Counted from the stretch's first letter, positions 18,351 through 42,933 are shown. The stretch: 55,838 nt of DNA from Spirochaetales bacterium (GCA_037142615.1 JBAXAI010000024.1:1-55838), one strand, 5' to 3'. A program made the numbers and translations. The notes: generated by a model not told the origin, from the sequence alone.

Positions 18351-18461
18351 TCCTTTGTAACCCCTCGCTCCTTGAGACCAACTGCCGAGATCAACATACC
18401 GCAAATGGAGATAATTGACAACTTCCCCTATCTTGTTCTATCGGCATTTGGAGCTCTTTGC

Positions 18462-21349: not shown

Positions 21350-21549
21350 AAAGCCTGTTTGATGATCTGCCCCGTTTCTGCCCGGTCTGCGGACAGCCGC
21401 AGGACTTTGACGCGGTGCGCCGCACCGCCTACCTGAACGGCTACGCCCAGTACTGTTCAGGCTGCCGCAACAAATATCAGTACGTCGAGCGCCACGTCAC
21501 CGAGGAAAAGCTCTTCGACCAGCTCGACCCTGTTTACACCGCGCCGTGA
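21346..21549 (+). CDS. Small (67 aa) CxxC...CxxC zinc-ribbon protein
   Basis: GTG 21346 overlaps the cmk stop (GTGA), and its own TGA overlaps the next GTG. Sequence: VKSLFDDLPRFCPVCGQ...YCSGCRNKYQY. Confidence 0.7.
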   Translation: MKSLFDDLPRFCPVCGQPQDFDAVRRTAYLNGYAQYCSGCRNKYQYVERHVTEEKLFDQLDPVYTAP

Positions 21550-24500
21550 GGTTTGCCATGCCCCGAGTCCTTTTCGCTCTCACCCTGCTGCTGGCCGCCT
21601 GCTCGGCCCCGGTGCAGGAATCGTATACCGCCAAAAAAGCGCCTGCCGGGCCCCCGCCGGTGATTCAGGCGCAGCTCAACACCGACCTGTCGCAGTTCAG
21701 CATCCGGTACTTCACTCCCGTGACCCGGGAGGCCGAGGCGCCTCAGTTGGCTGATGACGGCACGCCGTTCACGCTGGTAGAGGTTTCGCCCGAAGGCGAG
21801 GTGCCCGACGACGCCAAACGCCCCTCGGTGGTGCTGAGTTTCAGCCAGAGCGTCGTTCCGCTGGCGCAAGTGGGCGGTGCGTCGCCAGAAGGCTTTGCCA
21901 CGGTCGAGCCTCCGTTGCCAGGAACCTGGCGCTGGCTAGGAACCCGGGTGCTCGCGTTTGAGCCTTCGGCCGATCTGGCCGACCAAACCGACTACCAGGT
22001 GAAGGTCAAGGGAGGACTCAAATCTTTGCAGGGAAAGGCGTTGACGGGACGAGACACGTTCCGCTTCCATGGCGTGGCGTTGCGCCTGACGGGGCTTGCC
22101 GTACCCTCGGCGACAGACCTCGACGAAGTTCCTCCCACGGCCGCCCAGACCGTCACGCTGACGTTCAATACCGCCGTCGAGGCGGCGGTGGGGGGCGCCT
22201 TGCAAGTGCTCGTCGCCGGCAAACCAGCCGTCGCCACCTCTCGCCGGGGTGCCGAGGCCAACCAGTTGGTGCTCCAACTGGCCTCCCTCCCTCCCGAAGA
22301 CGCCGAGGTCGAGGTCGTGCTCCCGGCCGGGACCCGTCCCCAGGCTGGTGCCCCGGCCACCGAACAGCCTAGCAGCCGCAGTTTTCACACCCTCACGCCG
22401 TTTGTGGCCTACACCGAGGAACTCGACGAAAGCTGGTCGCTGGAGTTTTCGCATCCGATTGACCCTGCGACCGCACTGACGGCGTTGCACGTGGTTCCCG
22501 ATATTGGCCTCAAGGCCGACAACGTGCGGGTCTACGGCAGTACCCTCCGCCTGGTGGGTCTGAATGTCCGGGCCGACAGCGATTACACCGTGCTCGTCGA
22601 CCCATCATTGCAAGACAAGTTCGGCCGCGCCCTCGGCCAGCGGCTGAAGTTCACGCTGCGGGCGGGGCCCCCCGAACGCTACGCGGTGTTTCCGGACCAA
22701 GAGGCCCACATGCTCGAAAAGGGCAGCCCCTCCAAAGTCGTGTGGGAGGGCCAGAACCTCGACGAGGGCACCCAGTTTGTGCAGGTCAGCACCGAGCCTT
22801 ATGCTCCACCGAACGGCTTCCGGTCGCCCCTGGACGTGTCGGGTTTCCTTCCCAACGTTCGCCACCTTTCGACCGTGCCGTTTGGCAACCTGCTCAATCC
22901 CAACGGCACCGGCTGGGTCGAAATGGGCTGGAGCATCAATCTGCACGAACGCTCGGGCGAGTCGCAGCGTACCTGGCTGAGTGTGCAGGTGACCGACCTG
23001 GGCCTGACGCTCCGCTACGGGTCGAACCGCATCGTGGCCTGGGTCACCTCGCTTTCCACCGGCCAGAGCGTCGCCGGCGCCAAAGTGACCCTTCAGACTT
23101 GGGACGCCCAGGCCTCCCGGGCCGAGAACCGCAAAGCCCAGACCACCGATGCGCAGGGCCTGGCCGTTTTTGAGCTGAACAGGGGCGACTACACCCGCTG
23201 GTTTGGCCTGCAGCGCGACGGCTGGGTGGCCGATGGTTTGCGCGTGGCCGTCGAGGCCCCGGGCGACCGCATCGTGTTCGTGCCCAACTGGTCGCACAAC
23301 GCCTGGACGGCCGGGGTGCAGGTGGGCGAGGGCCCGCTGCAGGCCGAGGTACGCCAGCCGCGCACTTTTGTGTTCACCGACCGCCAGCTGTACCGCCCCG
23401 GCGAGACCGTCACCTGGCGTGCCCTCGACAAGGACCTCGAAACGGGAACCTATCGAAGTTGGCAAGGCGCCTGGCGCATGCTGCTCACTGGCGACGACGA
23501 AAAGGCGATCGCCACCGCCACGGGCAAGTCTACTTCGTCGGGCGGCTCCTCGGGGTCCTTGGCTATACCGGCCGACCTCAAACCCGGCGACTACTCCCTG
23601 GCGTACCAGCGGCCCTCCACGGCCAAGGGTTCCGGCGGCTGGGAGACGACCACGACCGAAGCCGTCGTCGTCAACAATTTCCGCAAGCTGCTGTTCACCG
23701 TGACGGCCACCACCCCGTCGGTACCCCTGGTCCTGGGTGACCAGCTCAAGGTCAAACTCGCTGCGGACTACCTGTCGGGCGGGGTCGTTGCCGCGGGCGC
23801 CCTCGAGGACTATTGGACGCGCGAACCGGCCTCCTTCCGCGCGGTCGGTTCCTTGTACGAGGGCTGGGCCTTCGGTCCGCCACCGCTGGATTCGCGCACC
23901 ACGCTCAGCGAGGGCAAAGCCACGCTCTCGGGCGGCGGAACCTACGAAGTGAAGCACGCCTCGCTGGCCGAGGGAGTCCTCGGACTGCCCTACGTCTACC
24001 AGTACCAAGCCACCGTCACCGACCCGGCCAGCCACCAATCCGCCGCCACGTCGGCCCGCCTGCTGGTTCACCCGGCCGACTTCTACCTGGGGATCAAGCT
24101 CGGCGGACAGAATCTCGACGCCGACTCGGGCTGGTTGGCCTTTCTTCCGCAAGGGCAAGAGGCCAAACTCGACGTGGTCGTTGTCAAACCCGACGGAACG
24201 CCGTTTTCGGCAGCCGGGTTCACTCCGGCCGTCACCGCCGAGTTTGTCCGCCACGATTGGGCCCAGGTCGACCAGCAGGCCACCGGCGGTAACCTCGAAA
24301 CCCGCTGGGTGGAAACCCTGGTGACCGTGGCCACTCAGCCTTTGACGCTCACCGGCGCCACCGCAAGCCTGAGTTGGAAGCCCGACCGGGCCGGCGAATA
24401 CTCGGTCGAGGTGCGTTCCCACGACAAGGTCGGCCGCGCCGTCGTCACTCGCAAGGACGTGTACGTCACCGGTGCCGAGTGGGTGAACTGGGCCAACGAC

Positions 24501-27290
24501 AGTGCCGACTCGCTGGCCCTGACGCCCGAGCGGGCCCTGTACCAACCGGGCCAGACGGCGCGTGTGATCGTCCGTTCGCCGCTGCCCAAAGGCAAGTACC
24601 TCGTCACCGTAGAACGCGAAGGCGTGTTCGACCAAAGGGTCGTCGAGCTCACTTCGGCCTCGTCGGTGATCGAAGTTCCCATCAAGCCCGAGTATCTGCC
24701 GGTGGTGTATGTGTCGGTGGCCAGCTTTACCCAGCGCGCGGGCAAATTGACCCACGCCTATGGCAGTCCCGACCTCGACAAACCCCACGCGCTTTACGGT
24801 GTGGCCGCCCTCAAAATCGACAGCGAAAGCCGTCGCATCGACCTCGAAATCGTCAGCGATCAGGCCGTGTACGCGCCCGCTGCCAAGGCCACCGTCACCA
24901 TCAAGGCCACGCACCAGGGCAAACCGCTGGCCGACGCCGAGGTGACCTTTTTGGCCGTGGACCGCGGTGTCGTCGACCTGATTGACTACCACGTGCCCGA
25001 CCCGTTGGCGTACTTCTACGACCCTTCGTTCTTCCCGCTGATGGTGCGCGGAGCCGACTCGCGGTCGCTGCTCATCGACCCCGTCAACTACGTGCTGCGC
25101 GACCAGCCGGGCGGAGCCGGTGACGATGGCAAGTTGAGCGAGCGCAAAGACTTCCAGCCCACTGCGGTGTTCGAGCCTGCGCTGAAGACCAACGCGCAGG
25201 GCGTCGCCACCGTGGCCTTCAAGCTGCCCGACAGTCTGACCACTTACCGGACGACGGCCTTTGCTGTGAAAGACGACCTGTACGGCCTTTCCGAAGGCAA
25301 CCTCGCCGTCCGCCAGGCCCTCAACGTCAAGGCCGTTCTGCCCCGCAAGCTTCGCGAGCGCGACACCACCTTCAGCGGGGTGATGGTGACCAACCTCGAT
25401 TCGGCGGCTCAAAAAGTGACCATCGACGCGCAGTCGGACCTGCTGACCGTTGACAAAGAGGCCAGCAAGACCGTCACCGTGGCCGGGGGCCAAACCGTCG
25501 AGGTGGCTTTCCAACTCGCGGCCCCCCGCGCCGGCGCTGGAAAAGTGACCTTCACAGTGCATTCGGCGCTGGTCAACGAAAAGCTCACCGAAGCCGTGCT
25601 GGTCGAGCGGCCCGTCGTGTACGAGGCCGTGGCCACTTTGGGCAAGCTCACCACGGGCAAGACGGGGACCGACATCACCGAAGAAGCGCTGGTGATCCCC
25701 TCGGCGGCGCCCGACGGCTTGGGCACGCTCACGCTCACGCTCGATGCCACCCGCATCGCGTCGCTGGGTTCTTCGATGCGCTATTTGTTCGACTACCCCT
25801 ACGGCTGCTTGGAGCAACGTAGCTCGAAGCTGCTGCCTATCGTGTTGTTCGGCAAGTACTTGCCTGGCTACGCGGCCGGTTGGGGCCTTCCGGGTCTCGA
25901 TCCCCAGGCGGTGCTCGACGGCGAGCTCAAGGTGTTCGCGACCAGCCAGTTGCCCGACGGAGGCTTTCCCCTGTGGCCCAACGGACGGCGGGAACAGCCG
26001 TACGTGACTCTGCGCATCGCGCACATCCTGCTGCTGGCCCGCCAGGCTTCGCTCGAGGTCGGCACTTCGATCAAACTTGACGCCTTGCTGGCCCGGGTGC
26101 GGCTGCTCACGGCCGCCACGAAGAGCGACGAACTGCTGGCCTACGGACTGTACCTGCAGTCGCTGGCCGCCGGTGCGGGGTTGGCCGGTGTGGGCAAGGC
26201 CGAAGTGGCCCTCAGGCTCGACGAAGCCTTCCACCGCTGGAACAGCGCCACGTCCACGCCCGCAGCGGCCGGGACCTTTGCGCTGGGGGGGCTGGCCTAC
26301 CAGGCGCTCGGGAATACCAGCCGGGCCCAGCAAGTGCTTGACCGGCTGAAAGGCTTCCTCAAGCCCGATGCGCGCTCGGTCGAAATCGACGTTCGCCGCT
26401 TGCGGACAAGGGGTGAGGACCCGGACACCTTCACCGGTTCGACGGTAGAAACCTACGCTTTGGTCCTCCTGCTGTTCCATCAGCTCACCCCGGAAAGCGA
26501 TATGAACCAGCGGCTGCTCAATGCCCTCGTGGACCGGCAGACGAACGGCGTGTGGGGCAGCACGGTCGACAACTACTGGGCGTTGCAGGCTTTCGGGCAG
26601 GTGTTGGCCGCCGAAGAAACTCAGGCCCCCGCCTATGATGCGCAGGTCAGTGTGGGCACTGGCGCTGGATCCTCGCCAGCCGTTCTGTTCACGCACAGGT
26701 TCGAAGGGGTCAGAGCCGACACGCAGACCGTGGCGCTGGGCTTCCTCAGCGATACGCTCAAGGACCTTCCCCGCGACAAGAGTCTGCCCCTGCGCCTCGA
26801 GAAGACCGGCCCCGGCACGCTGTTTTATACGGCCGAACTTCGCTACGCCCTGCCTTCCGAACTGGCCCGGCCCATCGACCGGGGCCTCGAGGTCGTGACG
26901 CAGGTTACGGACATCGACGGCACGCCGGTGTTCGGCAACACGCTCACCGTGGGCAAGGTGTACCGCATGAGGGCGCTGGTGAGCACGGGCAAAACCCGCA
27001 CGCAAGTCGGCTTGCGGCTGGCGGTTCCCTCGGGGGCCGAAATCCTCGACGCGCGGTTCACCCCCAGCGTGCACGATGCCGACAACGGCGACGTGGAGAC
27101 CTTCTTGTTCGACAACGAGGTGCAGTACGTGTTTCCTGTGTTTCAGGCCGGCAACAGGCAGGTCGAGTTCCTGTTCCGCGCGGTGAACCAGGGCGTTTAC
27201 CCCACGCCGGGAGCCAGCACCGAGGCAATGTACACCCCCGAGGTGTTCGGCCGCGATCTTGGTCGCCTCTACTTGCTCAAGACACCATGA
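21546..27290 (+). CDS. Bacterial alpha-2-macroglobulin lipoprotein
   Basis: Lipobox LLAA-C; 'VQVTDLGL', 'FTDRQLYRPGETV', 'AVDRGV', 'KLPDSLTTYR', thioester motif YPYGCLEQ, 'AMYTPEVFGR'. ATG 21558 is an alternative start. Confidence 0.95.
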   Translation: MRFAMPRVLFALTLLLAACSAPVQESYTAKKAPAGPPPVIQAQLNTDLSQFSIRYFTPVTREAEAPQLADDGTPFTLVEVSPEGEVPDDAKRPSVVLSFSQSVVPLAQVGGASPEGFATVEPPLPGTWRWLGTRVLAFEPSADLADQTDYQVKVKGGLKSLQGKALTGRDTFRFHGVALRLTGLAVPSATDLDEVPPTAAQTVTLTFNTAVEAAVGGALQVLVAGKPAVATSRRGAEANQLVLQLASLPPEDAEVEVVLPAGTRPQAGAPATEQPSSRSFHTLTPFVAYTEELDESWSLEFSHPIDPATALTALHVVPDIGLKADNVRVYGSTLRLVGLNVRADSDYTVLVDPSLQDKFGRALGQRLKFTLRAGPPERYAVFPDQEAHMLEKGSPSKVVWEGQNLDEGTQFVQVSTEPYAPPNGFRSPLDVSGFLPNVRHLSTVPFGNLLNPNGTGWVEMGWSINLHERSGESQRTWLSVQVTDLGLTLRYGSNRIVAWVTSLSTGQSVAGAKVTLQTWDAQASRAENRKAQTTDAQGLAVFELNRGDYTRWFGLQRDGWVADGLRVAVEAPGDRIVFVPNWSHNAWTAGVQVGEGPLQAEVRQPRTFVFTDRQLYRPGETVTWRALDKDLETGTYRSWQGAWRMLLTGDDEKAIATATGKSTSSGGSSGSLAIPADLKPGDYSLAYQRPSTAKGSGGWETTTTEAVVVNNFRKLLFTVTATTPSVPLVLGDQLKVKLAADYLSGGVVAAGALEDYWTREPASFRAVGSLYEGWAFGPPPLDSRTTLSEGKATLSGGGTYEVKHASLAEGVLGLPYVYQYQATVTDPASHQSAATSARLLVHPADFYLGIKLGGQNLDADSGWLAFLPQGQEAKLDVVVVKPDGTPFSAAGFTPAVTAEFVRHDWAQVDQQATGGNLETRWVETLVTVATQPLTLTGATASLSWKPDRAGEYSVEVRSHDKVGRAVVTRKDVYVTGAEWVNWANDSADSLALTPERALYQPGQTARVIVRSPLPKGKYLVTVEREGVFDQRVVELTSASSVIEVPIKPEYLPVVYVSVASFTQRAGKLTHAYGSPDLDKPHALYGVAALKIDSESRRIDLEIVSDQAVYAPAAKATVTIKATHQGKPLADAEVTFLAVDRGVVDLIDYHVPDPLAYFYDPSFFPLMVRGADSRSLLIDPVNYVLRDQPGGAGDDGKLSERKDFQPTAVFEPALKTNAQGVATVAFKLPDSLTTYRTTAFAVKDDLYGLSEGNLAVRQALNVKAVLPRKLRERDTTFSGVMVTNLDSAAQKVTIDAQSDLLTVDKEASKTVTVAGGQTVEVAFQLAAPRAGAGKVTFTVHSALVNEKLTEAVLVERPVVYEAVATLGKLTTGKTGTDITEEALVIPSAAPDGLGTLTLTLDATRIASLGSSMRYLFDYPYGCLEQRSSKLLPIVLFGKYLPGYAAGWGLPGLDPQAVLDGELKVFATSQLPDGGFPLWPNGRREQPYVTLRIAHILLLARQASLEVGTSIKLDALLARVRLLTAATKSDELLAYGLYLQSLAAGAGLAGVGKAEVALRLDEAFHRWNSATSTPAAAGTFALGGLAYQALGNTSRAQQVLDRLKGFLKPDARSVEIDVRRLRTRGEDPDTFTGSTVETYALVLLLFHQLTPESDMNQRLLNALVDRQTNGVWGSTVDNYWALQAFGQVLAAEETQAPAYDAQVSVGTGAGSSPAVLFTHRFEGVRADTQTVALGFLSDTLKDLPRDKSLPLRLEKTGPGTLFYTAELRYALPSELARPIDRGLEVVTQVTDIDGTPVFGNTLTVGKVYRMRALVSTGKTRTQVGLRLAVPSGAEILDARFTPSVHDADNGDVETFLFDNEVQYVFPVFQAGNRQVEFLFRAVNQGVYPTPGASTEAMYTPEVFGRDLGRLYLLKTP

Positions 27291-29497
27291 GGCTCCGGCG
27301 GGTGGCGCGGTTAACTCCGGGTGCCGTGGCCTTTTTTTTGGTGACAGACCTCGCTCTGCGTTGGGTTCTTCTCCTGGCACCGTACCCCGAACTCGACGCC
27401 TTCGTGGCCCAGCCAGCCAGCGCCGTGGTCACCGACCGGGCAGGCCGTTTGCTGCAGGTGACCGCGCTCGAGGGAGGGTTGAGGCGTCTCGACACGCCCC
27501 TGAGCCAGATTCCTGCCTCGGTGAAACAGATCTTTTTGCGGGCCGAGGACCGGCGCTTCTACCTCCACGACGGCTTGGATCTCTGGGCTCTGGCCCGCAG
27601 TGCAGCCGACAACCTGGTCGCGGGCCGCGTGGTCAGCGGGGCGTCGACGATCTCGATGCAGTTGGCGCGCCTGGTGCACCCGCGGGGATCGGGCTGGGTC
27701 GCGAAGGCCCTGGAAGCGCTCGACGCGGCCCGCCTCGAGGCCCGCTTGAACAAGGACCGAATCCTGGAACTCTGGCTGGACCATCTGCCTTTTTCATCGC
27801 GGTTGGCGGGGGTAGAGGCTGCCGCCCGAGGGGTCTTTGGTATTGCACTGACCGAACTCACGGTGGAGCAAACCACGTTGTTGGCCGTCATTCCGCGGCG
27901 ACCCGCGCTGTACGATCCTCGCGTGGACCCCGGTTCCAGCGCGGCAGCTGCCCTGCGTCTCTTTGGTCCTGAGGCCTCAGAGGGCGCACTGGAGTCGCTG
28001 GTCTCTGCCGCCCGGGCCTCGGCCTCGACACCGCCGTTCCCGAAGGAGGCACCTCACTACGTGCGCTTGCTGGAAGCTTCGACTCCTGGCGGACTCCACG
28101 GCCGCGTTGTCACGTCGCTCGACCTCGAGTTGCAGCAGCGGCTCGAGGCGGCGATCCGCAAGAATCTCAAACCATGGTACGCCAACCGTTTGCGCAACGG
28201 GGCCGGCCTGGTGCTCGACAACGTCAGCGGCAACGTTCTGGCGTGGGTGGGTTCCGCCGACTTTGACGACGCCGCTGAGCTCGGGCAAAACGATGGCGTG
28301 TTGGCCACCAGTCAGCCCGGCTCAGCGCTAAAACCCTTCTTGTACGCGCTGGCGCTCGAGCGGGGTCTGTCCCCGGCCACGGTGCTGCCCGACCTGCCCA
28401 CCGACTTCGGGAGCGCTGAAGTCTATAGCCCCTCGAACTTTAACGGTCGTTTCAACGGACCGGTACGCTTGCGGGTGGCGCTGGCCTCCAGCCTCAACGT
28501 TCCTGCCGTCGAAGTTTTGCAACGCGTTGGCGTGCGCCCCTTCGAGAACTGGCTGCGCGACCTCGGCTTCGCGTCGCTTGAGCGGCAGCGGGGAACCCTC
28601 GGCGTCGGGCTGGCGCTGGGCAACGCCGAGGTGAGTCTGCGCGAGATGGTGAGTGCGTTCGCCGTTTTTCCGCGCGGCGGCCTCGACCTTGCCGGCAAAC
28701 AGGTGATGAGCGCCACCACGGCGGCCCAGATCCGCGACATTCTGAGCGACCAACCCAGCCGCTTCCTGGGCTTCGGCAGCAGTCGCACGCTGCAACGCGA
28801 CTACGACGCCATGTTCAAAACCGGTACCGCCAACCAATACCAGCAGGTGTGGGCCCTGGGGGCGACGGCGCAGGTCACCATCGGCGTCTGGATGGGCAAC
28901 TTCCGCGGGCAGACCGTCATCGGCCGCACCGGCAGCGGCATTCCGGCCAAAGCGCTGGTCGAGGTGCTCGACACCCTGGCCACGCCCGCCGACCCTGAGT
29001 CCGCAAACTGGTGGAGGTCTGTCCCCGCCAGTCACACCCTGCGCATCTGCACGCTCTCGGGTCTGGCGGCAACCGACAATTGCCCCACCATGCTCGAAAG
29101 CTTTGCCGACGCCCGGGGTTCTGGGGGCGCTGCTTCCGATCCGCCGCCCTGTACCTGGCATCATCCGGGGGGCCGCGTGACCTACCCGGCCGAGTACGCT
29201 TCCTGGGTGACCGGTGGCGGGCGGGCGGGTCTGGGGGCGAGCCAGGAAACGGTGCCCGGCACTGATCCCGAAATCCTGTCGCCGGCCAACGGTGCGGTGT
29301 ACTACCTCAACCCCCAGAAGCCTTTGGCGAGCCAGGCCGTCCCGGTGAGGGTGGCCGGGGCTCCTGGGGCCCTCGTCACCGTCGATGGCCGTTCGGTCGC
29401 CTACCTCGATAGTACCGGCACGGCCGCCTTGCCCCTGACCGCTGGTGTGCACCGGTTGCAGGTTGGGGGTGCCACCGCGAGCTACGAGGTGCGCTGA
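27287..29497 (+). CDS. pbpC: Penicillin-binding protein 1C (transglycosylase/transpeptidase)
   Basis: EDRRFY.HDG.D, SGASTISMQLAR, QPGSALKPF (SxxK), SLNVPAV (SxN), KTGT. It lies directly downstream of the alpha-2-macroglobulin, the canonical pairing. Confidence 0.93.
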   Translation: MRLRRVARLTPGAVAFFLVTDLALRWVLLLAPYPELDAFVAQPASAVVTDRAGRLLQVTALEGGLRRLDTPLSQIPASVKQIFLRAEDRRFYLHDGLDLWALARSAADNLVAGRVVSGASTISMQLARLVHPRGSGWVAKALEALDAARLEARLNKDRILELWLDHLPFSSRLAGVEAAARGVFGIALTELTVEQTTLLAVIPRRPALYDPRVDPGSSAAAALRLFGPEASEGALESLVSAARASASTPPFPKEAPHYVRLLEASTPGGLHGRVVTSLDLELQQRLEAAIRKNLKPWYANRLRNGAGLVLDNVSGNVLAWVGSADFDDAAELGQNDGVLATSQPGSALKPFLYALALERGLSPATVLPDLPTDFGSAEVYSPSNFNGRFNGPVRLRVALASSLNVPAVEVLQRVGVRPFENWLRDLGFASLERQRGTLGVGLALGNAEVSLREMVSAFAVFPRGGLDLAGKQVMSATTAAQIRDILSDQPSRFLGFGSSRTLQRDYDAMFKTGTANQYQQVWALGATAQVTIGVWMGNFRGQTVIGRTGSGIPAKALVEVLDTLATPADPESANWWRSVPASHTLRICTLSGLAATDNCPTMLESFADARGSGGAASDPPPCTWHHPGGRVTYPAEYASWVTGGGRAGLGASQETVPGTDPEILSPANGAVYYLNPQKPLASQAVPVRVAGAPGALVTVDGRSVAYLDSTGTAALPLTAGVHRLQVGGATASYEVR

Positions 29498-30642: not shown

Positions 30643-31095
30643 TTATTTGAGCTCCTGGATTGCCTTGATAAACTCATCGACGTTGCCAAAGCGCTTGTAG
30701 ACGCTGGCAAACCGCACGTACGCCACCTTGTCGACGCGCTCGAGCTTGCCCAGCACCAGGTCGCCAAGCTGTCGGCTGGTCACTTCGTGGTTGGCCTTGC
30801 CTTCCATGGCCGCTTCGTCTTCCAGCTGGTTGAGCAGCTCCTCGATATCGACCTGGCTGATGGGCCGCTTTTCGAGCGCGCGCACCAGGCCCCGCTCGAT
30901 CTTCTTGACGTCAAAGGGTTCCCGCCGGCCGTCGCTCTTGACCACCATGAGCGGAATCTCTTCGATCCGCTCGTAGCTGGTGAATCGATAGCCGCATTTG
31001 AGGCATTCCCGGCGCCGGCGGAGCGAGGTTCCCGAGATGTTCTGGCGACTCTCGATCACCTTGTCTTCCAGATCACCGCAAAGAGGGCATTTCAT
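30643..31095 (-). CDS. nrdR: Transcriptional repressor NrdR
   Basis: MKCPLCG..EDKVIESR...RRRRECLKCGYRFTSYE zinc ribbon, ATP cone, DKVAYVRFASVY. Confidence 0.97.
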   Translation of the reverse strand: MKCPLCGDLEDKVIESRQNISGTSLRRRRECLKCGYRFTSYERIEEIPLMVVKSDGRREPFDVKKIERGLVRALEKRPISQVDIEELLNQLEDEAAMEGKANHEVTSRQLGDLVLGKLERVDKVAYVRFASVYKRFGNVDEFIKAIQELK

Positions 31096-36038: not shown

Positions 36039-36941
36039 ATGAGCAACCCCTCGGACATGGAAGTCTCCAGACAGTTTGAATTGAAGATGTACATCGATTC
36101 AACTTCAGCGATGTACGAGAATGCGCTCCTCCAAAACGGCGAAATCTACGACACTGCGAGCCGGTTCACGAGGGAGTTTGCTGACATTTCTGCCCAAGCA
36201 ATCCTTGCCGACTCCCGAATCATCAAGATCCTCCGATACCTGGTGACTCCATCGATAAGTCAAATGAAGTTCGGCCAACTCTTTGAGTTTCAGTCCATCG
36301 GCAAGTTCGAGGACGCGCGGGTGCTTCCCGATTCCAACAAATACAGGGAACTAGAGCGGATCGCACCTAAAATTGCTGACTTCGTTGGCGAACGTCTTGA
36401 TCGGCGGCGTTTTCTTTGGCTTTCGTCAAAAGACCATGATTTCCCGATATCGCGGGAGTACGCCAAGAACTGGACTTGTTCCCTCGTTGCTGACCAGAAT
36501 GCACAGACCAATTACAGAAACTGGAGAAAAGACCAGCAGGAGCATGCGGTGACATCTCATCTGATACAGTTGGGCTACACCAAGACCAAGTTCAACGGGG
36601 TTATCAACAGGGCAACCGACTTGAGAATTGGCGAGTTTTCGCGCGAAATCAAGGTAAGGGGTCGCACCATCCAGAAGGCCGACATGGCGTTTCGGAGCAG
36701 AAGATCGAAGAAGCTCATTCTCATCGAGGCAAAGGCGGTCGGTGTTGAGCTCGACGCCACAAAGCGAATCAAGGAGTGTAGCGACAAGGCGGGTGATTGG
36801 CGGGCCTCAGCAGAACTGGAGGAACCGACCGTTGTAGCGGTAATCGCTGGTTTCTTTTCTCAAGGCAATCTTGAGAACCTTTCATCCTCCGGGGTGTCGA
36901 TTGTATGGGAACATCATCTCGAAGGTTTGGATGCATTCTAA
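36039..36941 (+). CDS. Type II restriction endonuclease, XamI-like PD-(D/E)XK
   Basis: 'LRYLVTPSIS', 'LDRRRFLWL', 'QTNYRNWRKDQQE', catalytic 'KADMAF...LIEAK', 'VIAGFF'. Coupled to a DNA methyltransferase; visibly lower GC than the flanks. Confidence 0.75.
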   Translation: MSNPSDMEVSRQFELKMYIDSTSAMYENALLQNGEIYDTASRFTREFADISAQAILADSRIIKILRYLVTPSISQMKFGQLFEFQSIGKFEDARVLPDSNKYRELERIAPKIADFVGERLDRRRFLWLSSKDHDFPISREYAKNWTCSLVADQNAQTNYRNWRKDQQEHAVTSHLIQLGYTKTKFNGVINRATDLRIGEFSREIKVRGRTIQKADMAFRSRRSKKLILIEAKAVGVELDATKRIKECSDKAGDWRASAELEEPTVVAVIAGFFSQGNLENLSSSGVSIVWEHHLEGLDAF

Positions 36942-38110
36942 TGAGTTTCCGATATGTGAGCGTCTTCAGTGGTGCGGGCGGGCTTGATATTGGCCTGGAG
37001 CGGGCGGGGTTGCGTGCAGCTTCTTTGTGTGAAATTGAGAGGGTGTTTTGTGAAACACTAGAAGCGAACAAAGGTTGGCGGCATGAAGATAACCACGAAT
37101 ACCACGTTGATTCCAGAATCCTGAACGCCGACATTCGTGAAGTCTCCGGTTCTGACCTGTTCTCTGAAGGCGAACTCGACCTCGTCGTTGGCGGGCCGCC
37201 CTGTCAGGCATTCTCAAGTTCGGGGAAGCAATTGAGTGTTCTTGACCCCCGGGGCGCGCTCGTCTCGGAATACTATCGAATTATCGATGAACTTCGGCCT
37301 AAAATGTTTCTGTTTGAGAATGTAAGGGGGCTCGTGACCGCACGGGACGCTCAAGGCAGACCCGGAGGTGTTATCACCGAGCTGATCCGGATCTTGGAAG
37401 ACCTCGGCTACAGCGTAAGGTCCGCACTTCTCAATTCCGCTGACTTCGGGTCCAGCCAGCGGCGAGTCCGCTGCTTCCTGCTTGGATCACGCGAGGGCAC
37501 GGCTCCACTTTTTCCGGCCCCAACACACAGCAAAGACGGGGGTCTACTTACCCTTCCGTGGAACTCGCTCGCTTCGCTACTGAAGGTCTATGCCGAAGCG
37601 GACGAAACGCAGTTCGTCTTTCCAACTCGAGTGCTGGCAAAGCAGTTCGAAAGTATTCCCAATGGAAGTGGACTCAAGAGCCCCGGAAAGGCGGAGGCTA
37701 CCCGGCCCAACGGGCACTGGGGCTATCGACAGGGAACATTCATCTCAGATTTGGAATTACCCGCCAGAACAGTAACCGGCTCGCAGTCGCAGGATTGGGT
37801 GCGTTGGGGAGGGGCGCTCCGTCGACTGACCTTCAGCGAGATCCGGCAGCTTCAAGGCTTTCCTCGGGATTGGACTTTCAAGGGAACAAAGGCGCAAGTC
37901 TACAAGCAAGTCGGAAACGCGGTGCCTTCGGTTTTCGGAGAAGTTTTGGGGGAGGTCATCGTGAAGCACCTTATGGCCAACAACGGTGGACCCACACAAA
38001 AGATCCCGATGCCTCATTCGTTCCAATCTTACATCGACTACACCGTCAAAGACCATAATCGGAACGCCGCCTCAAGGCAGATTCACAAGCGGTTTGCCCC
38101 TGCTGAGTAG
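36941..38110 (+). CDS. DNA (cytosine-5)-methyltransferase
   Basis: Motif I FSGAGG, IV GGPPCQAFS, VI FENV, VIII QRRVR, IX RRLT..E..LQGFP, X YKQVGNAVP. ATG 36941 overlaps the nuclease TAA. Confidence 0.95.
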   Translation: MSFRYVSVFSGAGGLDIGLERAGLRAASLCEIERVFCETLEANKGWRHEDNHEYHVDSRILNADIREVSGSDLFSEGELDLVVGGPPCQAFSSSGKQLSVLDPRGALVSEYYRIIDELRPKMFLFENVRGLVTARDAQGRPGGVITELIRILEDLGYSVRSALLNSADFGSSQRRVRCFLLGSREGTAPLFPAPTHSKDGGLLTLPWNSLASLLKVYAEADETQFVFPTRVLAKQFESIPNGSGLKSPGKAEATRPNGHWGYRQGTFISDLELPARTVTGSQSQDWVRWGGALRRLTFSEIRQLQGFPRDWTFKGTKAQVYKQVGNAVPSVFGEVLGEVIVKHLMANNGGPTQKIPMPHSFQSYIDYTVKDHNRNAASRQIHKRFAPAE

Positions 38111-38122
38111 TCGTGACAGATG

Positions 38123-39562
38123 CTACTCCTTGATTTGCGCCAGAATCTCGGGCAGGTACTTCAGCACGTAGTTCAGGCCGTCGCGGTTGGTGTTGAGGCC
38201 CAGGCTGAAGCGGATCGTGCCGTAACCGGGCCTATCGGCACCGATGGCTGACAGCACGTGGCTGGTCTTGATTTTGCCTGAACTGCACGCCGAACCGGCC
38301 GACACGCTCACGCCGATGTTGTTCAGCGACAACAACATGCTCCCGGTATCGATGCCCGGAAAGGCTACGCTCAGGTTGGCGTCGCTGCGGTGCTCTAGGC
38401 TTCCGTTGACCCGCAAGCCAGGCTCGATTCGCCGCAGCTCGGCAAGGAACCAGTCGCGCAGGGTGCGCAGCCGCAGCCCCTCGCGCTCCATTTCGTTGTA
38501 GGCCAACTCGGCGGCCGTCGTCAGCGCCAGCAGGTAGCCGACGTTTTCGGTGCCGCTACGGTGGCCGTTTTCCTGCCCGCCGCCCTGAAGCAACGGCGCT
38601 ACCGTGTGTTCCTTCGCCTGCCACAACAGGCCCACGCCCTTGGGGGCATAGATTTTGTGCCCCGAAACCGCCAGAAAGCTGACGCCCCATTCGCGGGGGC
38701 GCAGCGGCATTTTGCCAAAGGCCTGCACCGCATCGACAAACAGCGGAACTCCGTGGGCGCGGCAAACCGCGCCAAGTTCGGGAATCGGGTTGATGGTGCC
38801 GATTTCGTTGTTGACCATCATGGCGCTCACGAGCACGGTCTCGGGCCGAAGCGCGGCTTCGACGGTTGCCGGCTCGAGCAGGCCCTCGGCGTTCGGATTC
38901 ACCCAGGTGACGGCAAAACCCAGCGATTCCAGCCATTTGTGCGGCTCAAGCACGCAACTGTGCTCGACGGTGCTGCACACAAAATGGGGGGCAGGCGTGC
39001 GGCCCAGCCCGGCGCGAAAGGCCACACCTTTAATGACGGTGTTGGCGCTCTCGGTACCGCAGCTGGTGAAGGTCAGCTCAGGGGCGCTCACGCCCAACAG
39101 GCCGGCGAGCGTTTCTCGGCACCGGTCAATCTGGTTGAAGGCGGCTTGGCCCTGCAAGGTGCCCGAACTCGGGTTGGCAAAGCCGAGGCGGCCTTCGTGA
39201 AAGTCGTGCAGCACTTGCCCCACCTCGCGCCGGATGTAGGTGGTGGCGTTGTGGTCGAGGTACACCTCGCGGAAGTCGGCCACCTCGAGCTTGGCCGGTG
39301 GTTTGCAGGTGTTGTCGGCCGTCTGGATAGGAATGCCCACCCACGTGTAAAGGCTGTTCAGTCCGTGGGGAAACAGGCGGTCGAGCTCGGCCTTGTCGAG
39401 GGCCAAGGCCTTTTTCAGCGTCAAAAACAGCGGGCCGACGCGGTTTTTTTCGTAGTAGCGCCACGCGAACTCGAGCACCGCCAAGTGGCGGTCGGTGAGC
39501 TCGGTGTGCGTCAGCACCGACATCCGCCCAATCTGCGTCAGCACATAATTACTTAAGGCCAT
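38123..39562 (-). CDS. Group I cysteine desulfurase (NifS/IscS-like) with an N-terminal DsrC/TusE-like domain
   Basis: YLDHNATT, ANPSS, FTSCGTES, EHSCV, DAVQ, SGHKIYAPKG (PLP Lys), RSGTEN, SAGSACSS (catalytic Cys). The first ~90 aa read LTDRHLAVLEFAWRYY...P...LFPHG...GIP....C. ATG 39562 overlaps the upstream TAA. Confidence 0.9.
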   Translation of the reverse strand: MALSNYVLTQIGRMSVLTHTELTDRHLAVLEFAWRYYEKNRVGPLFLTLKKALALDKAELDRLFPHGLNSLYTWVGIPIQTADNTCKPPAKLEVADFREVYLDHNATTYIRREVGQVLHDFHEGRLGFANPSSGTLQGQAAFNQIDRCRETLAGLLGVSAPELTFTSCGTESANTVIKGVAFRAGLGRTPAPHFVCSTVEHSCVLEPHKWLESLGFAVTWVNPNAEGLLEPATVEAALRPETVLVSAMMVNNEIGTINPIPELGAVCRAHGVPLFVDAVQAFGKMPLRPREWGVSFLAVSGHKIYAPKGVGLLWQAKEHTVAPLLQGGGQENGHRSGTENVGYLLALTTAAELAYNEMEREGLRLRTLRDWFLAELRRIEPGLRVNGSLEHRSDANLSVAFPGIDTGSMLLSLNNIGVSVSAGSACSSGKIKTSHVLSAIGADRPGYGTIRFSLGLNTNRDGLNYVLKYLPEILAQIKE

Positions 39563-40431
39563 TAGCTTTGCTTTGCTCCAGGGTACTGTGGGAACGGGTA
39601 CCCGAACCGGCTGTCTTTCATACCCTGCACCATCACTTCGAAGGCCTTCCATGGAATGCCCAGCCCCAGCCGGTCGGCCTCGTATTGCGCAATCAGGCGC
39701 GCCCCGACGCAGTAGCTCGAAAAGTTGATTTTGCCTGTGAGGTAGGGGCGCACGATCAGGTCGCTGTTCACCACTCGCACCGGCCCCATGCTTCCCTCGA
39801 CGCGCTCGCCGGTGTTGTACGCGTAAGCCTGGCCCAAGCGCGTCAGCTCGACCGGGCGCACGTTCATGGTGACCACATCGGGAACCAGGTCGAGCTCGTC
39901 GAACTCGTAGTTGTAAAAGAAGATGCCCTCGATGTTGGGCGGCTGGATGGCCAGCATGTCGGCCATGGCCTTGCGGGCGATTTCGGGGGTAGCAAACCGG
40001 CCCGAGTCCTTTTCGCCGAACAGACAGAACTCTTTGCGCCCAGCGGCCGGGGCGGCGTACACCGTGCCGTCCGAAAAGTCGGCCGGGGTCGGAGGGGCAA
40101 AGTCGGCCTTGCCCGACTGGCTGCGCATGATTTCGGTGTACACCCGGGGGCCTTCCATGGGCAGTTTGCGGTGTCGGTCGACCAACCCCAGCGTAATGGC
40201 GGCGGCGATGCACCCGATGTTCTGCCGGGTCAAGAAGACCGCGTCGCCCAGACCCGCCTGGCGGTTGGCCTGACAGCTGGTCAGGCTCACCCCATCGGTT
40301 TCGAAGGCCTTCACCTCGTCAGGGATAGTCTCGCCGAGGCGGAAGAACTTGACCCCCGCCGTCGGGATCTTGAGGTCCCAGTCGGCCATGTTGGCCAAAA
40401 GCTCGCCCGTCAGTCGCTGGAAGGTGGTCAT
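39562..40431 (-). CDS. DUF169 (COG2043)-like protein
   Basis: 'GVKF', 'SCQANRQA..G', 'NIGCIAAAITLG', 'PDVV....P', 'SSYCVGAR', 'LGIP'. GGAGG lies upstream of ATG 40431. Confidence 0.8.
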   Translation of the reverse strand: MTTFQRLTGELLANMADWDLKIPTAGVKFFRLGETIPDEVKAFETDGVSLTSCQANRQAGLGDAVFLTRQNIGCIAAAITLGLVDRHRKLPMEGPRVYTEIMRSQSGKADFAPPTPADFSDGTVYAAPAAGRKEFCLFGEKDSGRFATPEIARKAMADMLAIQPPNIEGIFFYNYEFDELDLVPDVVTMNVRPVELTRLGQAYAYNTGERVEGSMGPVRVVNSDLIVRPYLTGKINFSSYCVGARLIAQYEADRLGLGIPWKAFEVMVQGMKDSRFGYPFPQYPGAKQS

Positions 40432-40442
40432 GCGTGCCTCCG

Positions 40443-41351
40443 CTACTTCAGGAACCGGCTGTCGTAGAACTTCTCGAGGTCGATTTTGCCCGACAGCGCC
40501 GAAATCTTGGTCGTCAGGTAGGTCTGCATGGTGTCGAGTTCGGCCAGATTGGGCTTGAGCGCCTTGTAGCTCACCTTGGTGCCGCTCATCAGCACGCGGC
40601 TCATCACCTCTTCGGTTTGGCCGAGGAAGGCGGCGGCCACCTTGACGGCGCTTTCGGGTTTTTCGTGGATGAGCTGGCCCGATTTGACGAAGCTGGTCAC
40701 GAGTTCCTGGATGGCTTCGGGGTACTTTTGACAGATTTCTTCTTTGGCGACGACCACGCAGCAGGGATGGTCGGGCCAGATTTCCTGGCTGAGCTTGAAC
40801 TGGTCGCCCATGCCCTTGGCGATCACCACCGAACCGAAGGGTTCGGCAACGATGTAACCACCGATGTCGCCGGCTTCGTCCCACTCGATGAACTGGGGAA
40901 TCTGGCCGGGTGCTACGACTTCGAACACCACGTCCTTGCCTGGCCCGACGGTCATGCCGGCTTCCTTGAGCAGTTTGTCGAACAGCATGTGGTGAACGCT
41001 CAGATGGTAGGGGATCAGAACGGTCTTGCCCTTGAAGTCTTCGAGCTTGGTGATGTTGGCTTTCTTGTTGGTGACGATGATGCTGCCGTCACGGTGAGCC
41101 AGCATGATCAGCTTGAGAGGAACCTGGGAATGGAACAGCTCCATGGCGTACGGGGCCAGCATGAAGGCAATGTCGATTTCGCCGGCCGTCATGGCGTCGC
41201 CGACGTCGTTCCAGCCCGCCATCGAAATCGTCTCGAAACTGCAGTGTTCGAGTTTCTCGACGTCCTTGGCAACTTTGGCTTTGGTGACCCCCAGAACCAG
41301 GTGGTCGGTAATGGGCAAGTGTCCGATTTTGAAGACGGGTTTCGCGCTCAT
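40443..41351 (-). CDS. NrtA/CmpA/SsuA-like substrate-binding-fold protein lacking a signal peptide
   Basis: KIGHLPITDHL, GEIDIAFMLAP, AHRDGS, IPYHLSVHHML, VAEPFGS, WPDHPCCVVV. The N-terminus MSAKPVFKIG has no hydrophobic stretch; GAGG RBS upstream. Confidence 0.85.
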   Translation of the reverse strand: MSAKPVFKIGHLPITDHLVLGVTKAKVAKDVEKLEHCSFETISMAGWNDVGDAMTAGEIDIAFMLAPYAMELFHSQVPLKLIMLAHRDGSIIVTNKKANITKLEDFKGKTVLIPYHLSVHHMLFDKLLKEAGMTVGPGKDVVFEVVAPGQIPQFIEWDEAGDIGGYIVAEPFGSVVIAKGMGDQFKLSQEIWPDHPCCVVVAKEEICQKYPEAIQELVTSFVKSGQLIHEKPESAVKVAAAFLGQTEEVMSRVLMSGTKVSYKALKPNLAELDTMQTYLTTKISALSGKIDLEKFYDSRFLK

Positions 41352-41370
41352 GGGCTTCCTCTCTGCAACA

Positions 41371-41415
41371 GTTCTAGTACAACGATTTGCCAAAGGCAAG
41401 GATTGGCCCTACAGT
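41371..41415. promoter_or_regulatory. Back-to-back divergent sigma70-like promoters
   Basis: Plus strand: TTGCCA (41387-92), 17 nt, TACAGT (41410-15). Minus strand: TTGCCT (41399-94), 17 nt, TAGAAC (41376-71). The two -35 boxes form the palindrome TTGCC-AAA-GGCAA. Confidence 0.5.
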
Positions 41416-41421
41416 GAACGG

Positions 41422-42933
41422 ATGTTCCCGACGGTCCTGTTTCTCGGCTCTTTGCTCACGTTGCTGATGTTGCTGCTGGTTGTCCGGCGGATCGACAGCC
41501 CAGGGGCCACGCCTTTCGTCGGGTTGCTCGCCGGGTCGACGCTGTACAGTTTCGGCTACGCGCTTGAGTTGATGACGCCCCCCGGTTTCATGAGCTATTT
41601 CTGGACCCAGTTTCAGTACTGGGGCATTGTTTCCATCCCATCGTGCTGGCTCTGGATGTCGCTCGAAACGCCGCTGCAGGTCAAACTGCGCAGTCCGTGG
41701 CTCTACCTGGTCCTTTTTACGATCCCGGCCATCAGCCTGACGCTCACCCTGACCAATGACTGGCACCACCTGTTTTTCGCCAGTCTCGACTACGTGCGCG
41801 TCGGCGACCTGACCCTCGCGATCTCGGTCAAAGGCCCCGGCTACCTTTTGCACCTGTTATACTGCGGTGCCGTGTTCCTCCTGAGCCCGGTGTTCTTCTT
41901 GCTGCGCTGGCGCAAGCTCGGCCACGGCTACGGGTCGATGGCCATCCGGTTGCTTCTGGGCTCGCTGTTTGCTTGGGCGGGCCTCGCGGTCTATCTGCTG
42001 GGTTGGACTCCCGAGGGGCTCGACAGCACCCCCTTGGGCCTTACGCTGGCGGCGCTGGTGTACTACCGCGTGCTGCGTCCGGCCCGACTGTTCGAAATGG
42101 TTCCTTTATCGCGAGAACTGGTGTTTCGGCTCATTTCGCAGCCGGTGCTCGTGCTGGACCGCCGCTTCCGTCTGGTCGACTGGAACCCCGCGCTCGAGTC
42201 GCTTTGGCCCGGGATGACAAGCGCTCACGTCGGAGCCAAGCTCGGCAAACTTCTGAACAACCGGGTCTGGCTGGACAAATTGATGGATCCCCGCTTCCTC
42301 AGCCCCGCGACGCTGGCCTGGCAAGGCGAACAGATGACCTACTGGTCGGTCGAGCCCACCCCGGTCACCGACGATGGGGGCAAGCTTCAGGGCAGGATCT
42401 TCCTGTTCCGCAATGTGAGCGACATTGTGGCGAGGGACGAGTTGCTGGAGCGCCTGGACCTCACCGATCCGGTGACCGGGCTGTACAACGCCGAGACCTT
42501 CCGCAGCAAGGGACTTGAACTGACGAACGGGCTCGAGAACGATGGCGCCGTTTCGCTGGTGCTGCTCGAGTTGGCGGCTACCGAGGCCAACCTCAAGGGC
42601 GTGGTGACCTTGTGGGTCGGGCTGCTGCGGGGCTCGCACGTCTTTGCTCGGCTGGGGCCTTCCCGGTTCGGGCTCCTTTTGCCAGGCATGATCCCCGCCC
42701 GGGCGCTGAGCGTGGCCGAGTCGCTTTGCTCGCGTTTGGACCCGGCGGTTGCGACGGCCCGGTTTGGTGTTGCCGGCGCGCAGCGGGTCGCTGACCCATG
42801 GGATACGCTGTGCGCCCGGGCCGAGGCGGCGCTCAACGAAGCACTGAACGGGGGCCGTATCGGGGTGGCCGGGTGCGTGGCCGATGCCGATGGCACGGTA
42901 AGCACGTGTCTGGAAGTGGAAGGGGTTTCGTGA
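41422..42933 (+). CDS. HisKA_7TM-type membrane sensor with PAS and degenerate GGDEF domains
   Basis: 7TM region (GYALEL, QYWGI, LTNDWHHLFF, DSTP); PAS 'PVLVLD...LVDWNPA'; 'TDPVTGLYN' retained but the GGDEF site reads RLGPSRF. Confidence 0.8.
   Translation: MFPTVLFLGSLLTLLMLLLVVRRIDSPGATPFVGLLAGSTLYSFGYALELMTPPGFMSYFWTQFQYWGIVSIPSCWLWMSLETPLQVKLRSPWLYLVLFTIPAISLTLTLTNDWHHLFFASLDYVRVGDLTLAISVKGPGYLLHLLYCGAVFLLSPVFFLLRWRKLGHGYGSMAIRLLLGSLFAWAGLAVYLLGWTPEGLDSTPLGLTLAALVYYRVLRPARLFEMVPLSRELVFRLISQPVLVLDRRFRLVDWNPALESLWPGMTSAHVGAKLGKLLNNRVWLDKLMDPRFLSPATLAWQGEQMTYWSVEPTPVTDDGGKLQGRIFLFRNVSDIVARDELLERLDLTDPVTGLYNAETFRSKGLELTNGLENDGAVSLVLLELAATEANLKGVVTLWVGLLRGSHVFARLGPSRFGLLLPGMIPARALSVAESLCSRLDPAVATARFGVAGAQRVADPWDTLCARAEAALNEALNGGRIGVAGCVADADGTVSTCLEVEGVS

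Follow-up and report, generated by a model that had tools for sequence, protein, structure and literature searches.

A candidate sulfur-relay locus of three co-directional genes, A, B and C, was found on the minus strand of a 55,838-nt stretch of DNA from a Spirochaetales bacterium (GCA_037142615.1 JBAXAI010000024.1:1-55838), hereafter the window. The locus occupies positions 38123-41351 (Table 1). Gene A encodes a binding-fold protein of the NMT1_2 family, gene B a DUF169 protein and gene C a DsrC/TusE-like carrier domain fused to a putative cysteine desulfurase. With somewhat better than even confidence, we read the locus as a dedicated cytoplasmic persulfide relay. Sulfur would pass from Cys426 to Cys86 of the fusion and on to the cysteines of the DUF169 protein, with the NMT1_2 protein as a signalling partner. 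The conserved core was the pair of DUF169 and fusion genes, rather than the trio. This reading builds on computed gene order and its conservation, residue conservation, the families and folds of the parts and a predicted interface.

An initial annotation, made from the nucleotide sequence, had described three co-directional genes with an 11-nt gap and a TAATG overlap. The open reading frame (ORF) listing, translation and junction sequence agreed with it: the TAA of gene B overlaps the ATG of gene C as TAATG. An AGGAAG-type ribosome site was located 7 nt ahead of the gene A ATG. The cysteine motifs singled out in that annotation, HPCC in A, C53, C74 and C241 in B, and C86 and C426 in C, were all at the places given. 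Its statement that no permease or ATPase, IscU/NifU/Suf scaffold or mnmA/thiI gene was adjacent held across the window. Pfam searches of the 31 greedy ORFs of at least 90 aa detected no IscU/NifU/Suf scaffold, MnmA/ThiI, ABC permease or ATPase, and the sole ABC-type component was an unrelated SBP_bac_1 gene at 191-1396. The single promoter proposed ahead of the operon was not recovered. A consensus scan of positions 37900-41700 yielded no minus-strand sigma-70-like site and one plus-strand site versus 0.7 expected, and with terminators included the minus strand showed nothing above chance.

Gene C matched PF00266, the class-V pyridoxal phosphate (PLP) enzymes, at 209 bits (cut-off 21.5). The PLP lysine K303 (SGHK) and the loop cysteine C426 were present, and H201, D277, Q280, K303, R451 and C426 were invariant in 30 homologues. 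Fold and catalytic residues mark the PLP domain as a putative group I (NifS/IscS) cysteine desulfurase. The best model was TIGR03402 NifS with 352.8 bits, under its equivalog cut-off of 530.75. DndA TIGR03235 (292 versus 480) and IscS (283 versus 643) also remained under their cut-offs, suggesting a distinct subfamily.

The N-terminus of gene C scored 20.4-23.7 bits against PF04358 DsrC, just below the cut-off of 24.9, and this model was matched by all 33 homologous carrier domains (E up to 0.01). A profile of these 33 homologues retrieved the DsrC chains 2xsj_C (E 3.3e-9) and 2v4j_C (E 6.4e-8) from the PDB sequences, in an alignment that spans only DsrC positions ~40-87 of 105 and ends at LFP-G. 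The AlphaFold2 (AF2) model of residues 1-98 comprised five helices followed by a low-confidence arm. Its seven best Foldseek matches were all DsrC/TusE proteins, six of them with template modelling (TM) scores of 0.62-0.67 and root-mean-square deviations of 1.5-2.3 Å and the other, 1sau, with TM 0.46 and 2.8 Å. Profile and fold both place the DsrC-fold helix-turn-helix core in this domain. Cys86 was invariant in 120 of 120 relatives and in 33 of 33 sequences of the carrier-domain alignment, and was located in the arm past the last helix, where the predicted local distance difference test (pLDDT) value was 55-61. Its correspondence to the penultimate cysteine of the DsrC arm is positional only, because the alignment stops at LFP-G and the arm continues into the PLP domain. 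Residues 1-98 held no second cysteine, and the one situated about ten residues upstream in DsrC proper is wanting. Together with the invariance of Cys86, this points to a truncated, TusE-like carrier whose arm runs into the enzyme. The proposed fusion of a DsrC/TusE domain to a cysteine desulfurase was thus supported by profile, fold, PF00266 match and catalytic residues.

The best 119 listed relatives of gene C measured 448-516 aa and came from many phyla, judged by source names. This length range suggests that all of them carry the N-terminal extension. Chloroflexi, Planctomycetes (Scalindua), Gemmatimonadetes, Ignavibacteriales, Desulfobacterales and Gammaproteobacteria were among the source names of fusion and DUF169 relatives. 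Searched against 1.84 billion representatives, the carrier-domain profile gave 83 matches, 17 with E up to 1e-10, and the strong matches were fragments or full-length fusions of 481-483 aa. In one close relative (locus L090, 934-1170; fusion 83% identical), about 20 carrier residues were absent from the alignment, either as a real deletion or through an assembly fault. A same-genus genome held a NifS-like frame with 36% identity to gene C (G002:C6:149573-150676) and internal TGA and TAG codons, which may be a broken gene.

Gene B matched PF02596 DUF169 (COG2043) with 105 bits (cut-off 27) over profile positions 13-208 of 209. Its clade is distinct, with proteins of ~290 aa and ~60 extra residues between C74 and C241 compared with typical members. 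Conservation of the DUF169 cysteines had been set beforehand as a test, and it was borne out: C53, C74 and C241 were invariant in 121 of 121 close relatives. In a wider sample, made up of 23 ordinary members from the phylum and the window's own protein, C74 was kept in 23 of 24 sequences, C53 in 18 and C241 in 13. In the AF2 model (pLDDT 93.5), the three cysteines were located at or just before helix starts (H52-60, H75-80 and H242-248). DUF169 genes were also found in the control genomes of Methanocaldococcus jannaschii, Methanosarcina acetivorans and Bacteroides thetaiotaomicron.

No solved DUF169 relative was found by sequence in the PDB, even at E 10, and the best Foldseek match of the model had E 0.042 and TM 0.15. 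A VIA-align comparison with 48,161 chains gave a best Z of 4.7 and many thiolase and ketosynthase rows with Z 3-4.4, which was too weak to name a fold. Feature-based look-alikes in the atlas were GGGtGRT, HDC and AA_synth at 0.87-0.90, and atlas clusters included DUF169 fused to ferredoxin, URO-D and CoaE domains; both are leads only. No longer protein with DUF169 fused to another domain, such as a DUF169-desulfurase fusion, was scored, which is weak evidence.

A physical link between the two proteins was predicted. The complex of the whole fusion with the DUF169 protein had a score of 0.67 (median of three runs), versus 0.00 for the best of three controls. Among solved complexes, 116 of 157 attained the score mark, as did 2 of 215 mismatched pairs, a rough comparison since own alignments were used. 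The three runs shared at least 93% of contacts, and partner pLDDT was at least 90. Confident contacts on the fusion were all in the carrier domain (residues 40-48, 51, 57, 66, 68-69, 72 and 79-81). Those on DUF169 were arranged around the three cysteines (42-49, 54, 57-58, 61-65, 73, 95-101, 173-177 and 248-249). The carrier domain is thus predicted to dock on the DUF169 face bearing C53, C74 and C241. Since no solved DUF169 relative exists among the PDB matches, the score is not a memory of a like complex. This prediction had been fixed in advance as a check, and the difference between pair and control argues for the interaction at the level of the models. The top contact positions Q58, G62 and D63 were present in 61-62 of 62 members of the fusion-linked clade. 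Outside that clade, position 58 was H in clade II (9/9) and A, T or S in clade I, and position 63 was Q, H or E in clade II. G62 was partly kept in the other clades (6/9 and 3/7), as was D63 in clade I (5/7).

A metagenome scan with the DUF169 alignment yielded 80 loci, 59 of which held the DUF169 3' end plus at least 300 nt beyond. The fused desulfurase was encoded on the same strand and within 400 nt of DUF169 in 51 of these 59 loci, at a median gap of ~13 nt and mostly at less than 40 nt. A FastTree tree of gene B-like proteins, rooted with ordinary DUF169 proteins, resolved three clades. In the window's clade (62 tips, support 0.86), all 53 testable tips were fusion-positive and none was negative. 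Adjacency of the pair extended to Desulfoluna limicola, to three sister-genus genomes and to two from a further spirochaete family. As an indirect sign, 27 of the 119 listed fusion homologues had a longest contig of exactly the length given for a listed DUF169 homologue. Synteny of all three genes, as the initial annotation had expected, was confirmed for the DUF169-fusion pair and not for the binding protein. Of the 80 loci, 18 had a gene A-like gene and 12 had the complete trio, with gene A on either side of the pair.

A genome scan with the fusion alignment served as the contrast. Among the matches listed, 79 of 80 were unfused NifS/IscS genes and only locus L010, from Desulfoluna limicola ASN36, was fused; the search patterns lay within the PLP domain, and the 79 unfused loci were reused as controls. 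No DUF169 or gene A-like gene was detected there by tblastn. At 78 of these loci, the 150 immediate-neighbour ORFs included 32 NifU_N, 6 MnmA-type and 27 Rrf2 proteins, in a control set that was neither dereplicated nor taxon-matched. NifU, MnmA and Rrf2 were absent among the annotated neighbours of module loci. This neighbour pattern suggests that DUF169 occupies the place where a sulfur acceptor normally stands.

Other genes with a relation to sulfur or selenium were observed near the pair or near its relatives. DUF169 genes of a sister clade without desulfurase (L141 5330-10116, L109 720-3752 and L152 11174-12500) had sulfur-related neighbours: HdrA-like flavoproteins, one with an inserted receiver, an HdrB-like CCG protein and a YeeE-type transporter with TusA a few kb away. 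BshC of bacillithiol synthesis was encoded directly downstream of the pair in L134 and L164 (~9353-11017), and SelB directly downstream of the module in L093 (9457-11385). Genes for polysulfide-reductase-like NrfD, 4Fe-4S and molybdopterin proteins were located on the opposite strand in L117 and L159 (~9700-14100), adjacent to the module in L159.

Gene A matched PF13379 NMT1_2 at 111 bits and stayed below the cut-offs of the sulfonate and taurine models (TIGR01728 SsuA_fam 99.8 versus 163.5; taurine 35.5 versus 304). Residues 5-253 aligned with 35-275 of PDB 3un6_A (E 2.6e-25), and NrtC and CmpC also aligned with gene A through their cytoplasmic C-terminal domains (E 3.3e-11). The absence of a signal peptide, claimed initially, was upheld, because residue 5 already corresponds to residue 35 in the secreted homologue 3un6_A, leaving no leader, and an alternative upstream TTG start adds merely 16 polar residues. 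Gene A thus had no signal peptide, no ABC genes and no cut-off score that would mark a periplasmic binding protein of an ABC importer. HPCC was present in 19 of 19 relatives, and H11, H17, H86 and H120 in at least 18 of 19. The vicinal CC of this motif is common to 3un6 and not to NrtC.

The relatives of gene A were connected to signal transduction. Eight loci (L145, L108, L126, L147, L156, L133, L175 and L161) encoded, by Pfam, single proteins of ~650 aa with an NMT1_2 domain between REC and CheW domains, which look like a CheV protein into which a cytoplasmic binding protein has been inserted. The sister DUF169 clade without desulfurase accounts for some of the eight. The gene A protein of the window is the NMT1_2 domain alone, without REC or CheW. 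An NMT1_2 or signalling-domain protein was an immediate neighbour in 21 of 35 dereplicated module loci versus 2 of 78 unfused NifS loci; the signalling domains near the module included REC, CheW, MCP, HATPase_c and cNMP-binding. The sister genus has a gene for a cytoplasmic MCP, with zinc-binding and hemerythrin domains, that overlaps the start of DUF169. All five other module-bearing spirochaete genomes held a gene A orthologue (51-76% identity) on another contig, and in five of five close relatives without DUF169 neither a gene A orthologue nor a fused desulfurase was found. Unlinked orthologues were located beside a single-domain receiver in five of eight loci, and one was inside a CheD/CheX operon. 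A gene A orthologue and the start of nrdR overlap in the sister genus (L211 5021-6420, genome G005); the nrdR gene of the window is at 30643-31095, ~9 kb from gene A.

Gene A likely encodes a cytoplasmic sensor or signalling component. It had been put forward as substrate carrier or sensor, and the occurrence of its HPCC domain in REC-NMT1_2-CheW proteins and beside CheY-like receivers favoured the sensor and left the carrier role without support. The idea of a self-contained module had to be given up, since the binding domain is tied to CheY/CheW-type proteins of chemotaxis-type signalling elsewhere. The initial proposals that the module makes a thio-cofactor or other metabolite and that DUF169 holds an Fe-S centre were neither strengthened nor weakened.

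In the proposed relay, the NifS-type domain would use PLP, bound at K303, to move the sulfur of L-cysteine to a persulfide on Cys426, as its family and catalytic residues suggest. The fused carrier would then receive the persulfide on Cys86 of its flexible arm, a step to which the invariance and position of this cysteine point. The predicted docking brings the invariant V42-G43-P44-L45 loop and residues 66-81 of the carrier against the cysteine face of DUF169, where the sulfur would be handed over. DUF169 may thereafter keep the sulfur as persulfide or polysulfide, donate it to a small molecule or use it in assembling a metal-sulfur centre. Gene A would be a facultative third component, and its HPCC/His-lined domain most likely reads the product or state of the module or needs the module for its own cofactor.

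Use of the genes in nature is probable, as they were present in RNA libraries from lake water. Contigs identical to the window, from three metatranscriptome libraries in two studies, covered parts of all three genes, and the A-B junction was bridged by two RNA-library contigs, one from each study. Such contigs may hold DNA and show neither strand, level, absence nor a single transcript. They did not cover the B-C junction, 38000-38584 or 41042-41500, and they cannot show absence.

These limits are among several points that weigh against a dedicated relay. Cys86 lay outside the confident contacts, although residues 79-81 were inside. What we infer from the parts is each chemical step, including that at DUF169, the direction in which sulfur flows and the role of gene A. 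A fourth cysteine at position 127 was present in 57 of 62 clade members and is Ala127 in the window protein. All 11 fusion-negative tips of the tree fell in two sister clades (support 0.93 and 0.99). They were eight metagenome exceptions and three Desulfobacterota genome loci, and four of them had only 300-464 nt downstream. The adjacent fusion was missing in three of the four Desulfobacterota genomes with a close DUF169, matching the sister clades. Sister-clade DUF169 proteins without a fused desulfurase imply that DUF169 is not generally dependent on this donor. In the phylum sample of 201 genomes, ten had a gene A orthologue and only three of these any DUF169. The other seven showed no DUF169 match at 77-95% completeness, which implies that the binding protein is not dependent on the module either. 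The composition of the unfused control set counts here as well, as do the gene calls, which are greedy longest ORFs and crude in other loci.

Part of the same evidence would fit a minimal pair for Fe-S or metal-sulfur assembly. DUF169 would act as a scaffold in place of IscU/NifU or as a cluster protein and the fusion as its maturase, and the sulfur would end as sulfide. We regard this as somewhat unlikely. DUF169 is the neighbour here where unfused NifS loci have NifU_N, its three invariant cysteines are at or near helix starts and most of the clade has the fourth. DUF169-4Fe-4S ferredoxin fusions formed three atlas clusters of 58, 188 and 61 members, again a lead only, and the sister clade adjoins Hdr-like Fe-S/CCG proteins. 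However, the DUF169 protein of the window has just three of the four cysteines, and the uneven retention of C74, C53 and C241 in the wider family suits a dithiol/persulfide site at least equally. The genome already holds SUF, and among the window ORFs no iron donor or chaperone gene was adjacent. TusE/DsrC-type carriers are known for persulfide hand-over; to our knowledge, they are not known for Fe-S scaffolds. It is unlikely, in our estimate, that the module is a cytoplasmic sensory input rather than a biosynthetic pathway. In that case, the fused desulfurase would turn the cysteine (sulfur) supply into a persulfide or metal-sulfur state of DUF169, which would be read by the HPCC domain and passed to CheY/CheW-type proteins. 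Sulfur status would then steer motility or second-messenger signalling, here perhaps via the divergent 7TM sensor. If true, this would be the first function for DUF169, a family found from methanogens to Bacteroides, and a new class of intracellular chemoreceptor input. That gene A is a chance neighbour, the real unit being the two-gene pair and the NMT1_2 protein belonging to an unrelated chemotaxis-type pathway, appears quite unlikely. Its low adjacency (12 of 80 loci), its unlinked position in five other spirochaete genomes and Desulfoluna, the seven of ten orthologue-bearing genomes without DUF169 and its G+C of 0.576, below the 0.632 of genes B and C, would be expected from such a neighbour. 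Yet widely separated branches of the DUF169 tree show the adjacency again, on both sides of the pair and as stand-alone or REC-NMT1_2-CheW protein. The sister DUF169 clade without desulfurase is still found beside REC-NMT1_2-CheW, close relatives carry all three genes or none, and RNA-library contigs bridge the A-B junction.

The desulfurase domain could also serve nucleic-acid thiolation, as an SspA/DndA-type enzyme of DNA phosphorothioation in defence or, like TusE to MnmA, in tRNA thiolation. In the tRNA 2-thiouridine relay, TusE acts as carrier. The domain matched the PADLOC models of SspA (370.6 bits) and DndA (359.8), in addition to 292 bits for TIGR03235 DndA, and a type II restriction-modification pair is directly downstream in the window. 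These scores equal that of NifS (352.8 bits) and are below curated cut-offs, however, and the gene A and gene B proteins matched no PADLOC model. No DndB-E, SspB-D or MnmA/ThiI-type domain was found in the window ORFs or the annotated module neighbours; within this genome, the search for Dnd/Ssp covered the window only. The restriction-modification neighbour is specific to the window and lower in G+C than the window as a whole (0.536 versus 0.63). On balance, thiolation of nucleic acids is very unlikely. Selenium in place of sulfur, with the PLP domain as selenocysteine lyase and the carrier and DUF169 trafficking selenium, is highly improbable. NifS-type enzymes act on selenocysteine too, and SelB follows the module in L093. 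The DUF169 gene Shel_07530 is tabled with genes associated with candidate selenium-metabolism genes in the YedE section of one paper (PMC5322559). Against selenium, the SelB adjacency was seen in 1 of 35 dereplicated loci and the SclA model gave 96 bits versus a cut-off of 525. No SelD match was found in the window's genome, which is 96.7% complete; the control search was positive in 14 of 14 genomes, above the cut-off in two.

The surroundings of the locus are listed with its parts in Table 1. The likely start of the divergent 7TM gene is the methionine of MFPTVLF, ~70 nt from gene A. About 270 C-terminal residues of the 7TM protein had no Pfam family at 1e-4, and no output domain was recognised. 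The restriction-modification pair is convergent with gene C, 12 nt separate the stop codons, and the pair looks like an inserted island. Other genes were observed at lower coordinates of the window. A single frame of 5,328 aa with the bacterial Ig-like domains Big_13, Big_7 and Big_3 (2418-18404, minus strand) represents a giant surface-type repeat protein occupying more than a quarter of the window. A bacterial alpha-2-macroglobulin of 1,914 aa is encoded at 21546-27290 (plus strand). The next gene (27287-29497, plus strand) begins within it and combines transglycosylase, transpeptidase and PBP C-terminal domains, which is a known pairing. Near-identical DNA to the window was found in freshwater and lake metagenomes of ten studies. 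SufS (535 bits, cut-off 475) and SufD were encoded on contig C17 of the same genome, separate from the module. The module adds to this housekeeping SUF system as an accessory of patchy distribution.

Table 1. Positions of the three genes, their parts and neighbours in the window, and of REC-NMT1_2-CheW proteins at other loci.
Feature	Position	Strand	Remarks
Gene A	40443-41351	-	302 aa; signal-less NMT1_2/SsuA-like binding-fold protein
HPCC motif, gene A residues 195-198	40758-40769	-	
A-B spacer, 11 nt	40432-40442	-	cggaggcacgc, contains GGAGG; between TAG of A and ATG of B
Gene B	39562-40431	-	289 aa; DUF169 protein, proposed sulfur acceptor
Gene B cysteine codons	C53 40273-40275; C74 40210-40212; C241 39709-39711	-	
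Gene C	38123-39562	-	479 aa; truncated DsrC/TusE-like domain fused to putative NifS/IscS-type cysteine desulfurase
Gene C residues 1-98, carrier domain	39269-39562	-	Cys86 codon 39305-39307
Gene C residues 99-479, desulfurase domain	38123-39268	-	K303 codon 38654-38656; C426 codon 38285-38287 in AGSACSS loop
7TM sensor-type membrane protein	41422-42933	+	Context only; PF16927 HisKA_7TM 145.9 bits; divergent from gene A
XamI-like type II restriction endonuclease and C5 cytosine methyltransferase	36039-38110	+	Mutually overlapping
REC-NMT1_2-CheW proteins	L145 5026-6972; L108 4091-6055; L126 7931-9838; L147 3046-4959		
REC-NMT1_2-CheW proteins	L156 1582-3558; L133 4889-6916; L175 4036-5985		

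DUF169 (COG2043) is an old, widespread family without function or solved structure, and the locus offers it a concrete, testable partner and a predicted interface. In the accessible parts of the literature outside subscription journals, no function for DUF169 was found. The DUF169-fusion pair, the fused architecture, a role of DUF169 as acceptor, the REC-NMT1_2-CheW protein and the chemotaxis-type tie were not found described in that literature, and databases name the module proteins only generically. If confirmed, the relay would add a new terminal acceptor to the sulfur-relay repertoire and explain the DsrC-like domain fused to NifS in many phyla. It would also link sulfur trafficking to chemotaxis-type signalling through a cytoplasmic binding-protein domain.

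The kind of system, a desulfurase with a TusE/DsrC-type carrier and an acceptor, is already known, and the module can be compared with several known systems. With SspA/DndA it shares a PLP domain that scores 360-371 bits on their PADLOC models; it differs in the extra carrier domain and the constant partner DUF169, and no other Ssp/Dnd component was found in the window. Gene A has the same binding fold as the cytoplasmic NrtA-like domains of NrtC and CmpC (8wm7_C and 9u9z_C) and as Staphylococcus aureus 3un6_A. NrtC and CmpC show this fold serving as an intracellular ligand sensor, and 3un6 has the vicinal CC and several histidines in common with gene A. Unlike NrtC/CmpC, gene A stands alone; it has HPCC at a place where NrtC does not, and its relatives are wired to CheY-like receivers or CheW, without an ABC ATPase. 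The NifS-NifU and IscS-IscU systems (with IscR) likewise combine a type I desulfurase with an acceptor in an adjacent, translationally coupled gene. In the module this neighbour is DUF169 and there is no Rrf2 regulator, whereas the 78 unfused loci show NifU_N, MnmA-type and Rrf2 genes. DsrC, the gamma subunit of dissimilatory sulfite reductase (2v4j_C, 2xsj_C, 3or1_C and 1yx3_A), gave the best profile and fold matches of the carrier and shares with it the LFP-G motif and the cysteine-bearing arm. The module carrier is without the second cysteine ten residues upstream, hence TusE-like, and is fused to a PLP enzyme, and no DsrAB or DsrMK is near the module. In Escherichia coli, the Tus relay for tRNA 2-thiouridine comprises IscS, TusA, TusBCD, TusE and MnmA. 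The module differs from it in that donor and carrier are one polypeptide, the carrier is without the first third of the DsrC fold and the carrier cysteine is internal instead of penultimate. It has no adjacent TusA, TusBCD or MnmA, and its proposed acceptor DUF169 has no PP-loop. What both would have in common is a group I desulfurase feeding a carrier of the TusE/DsrC fold, which presents a single conserved cysteine on a flexible arm and docks on the final acceptor.

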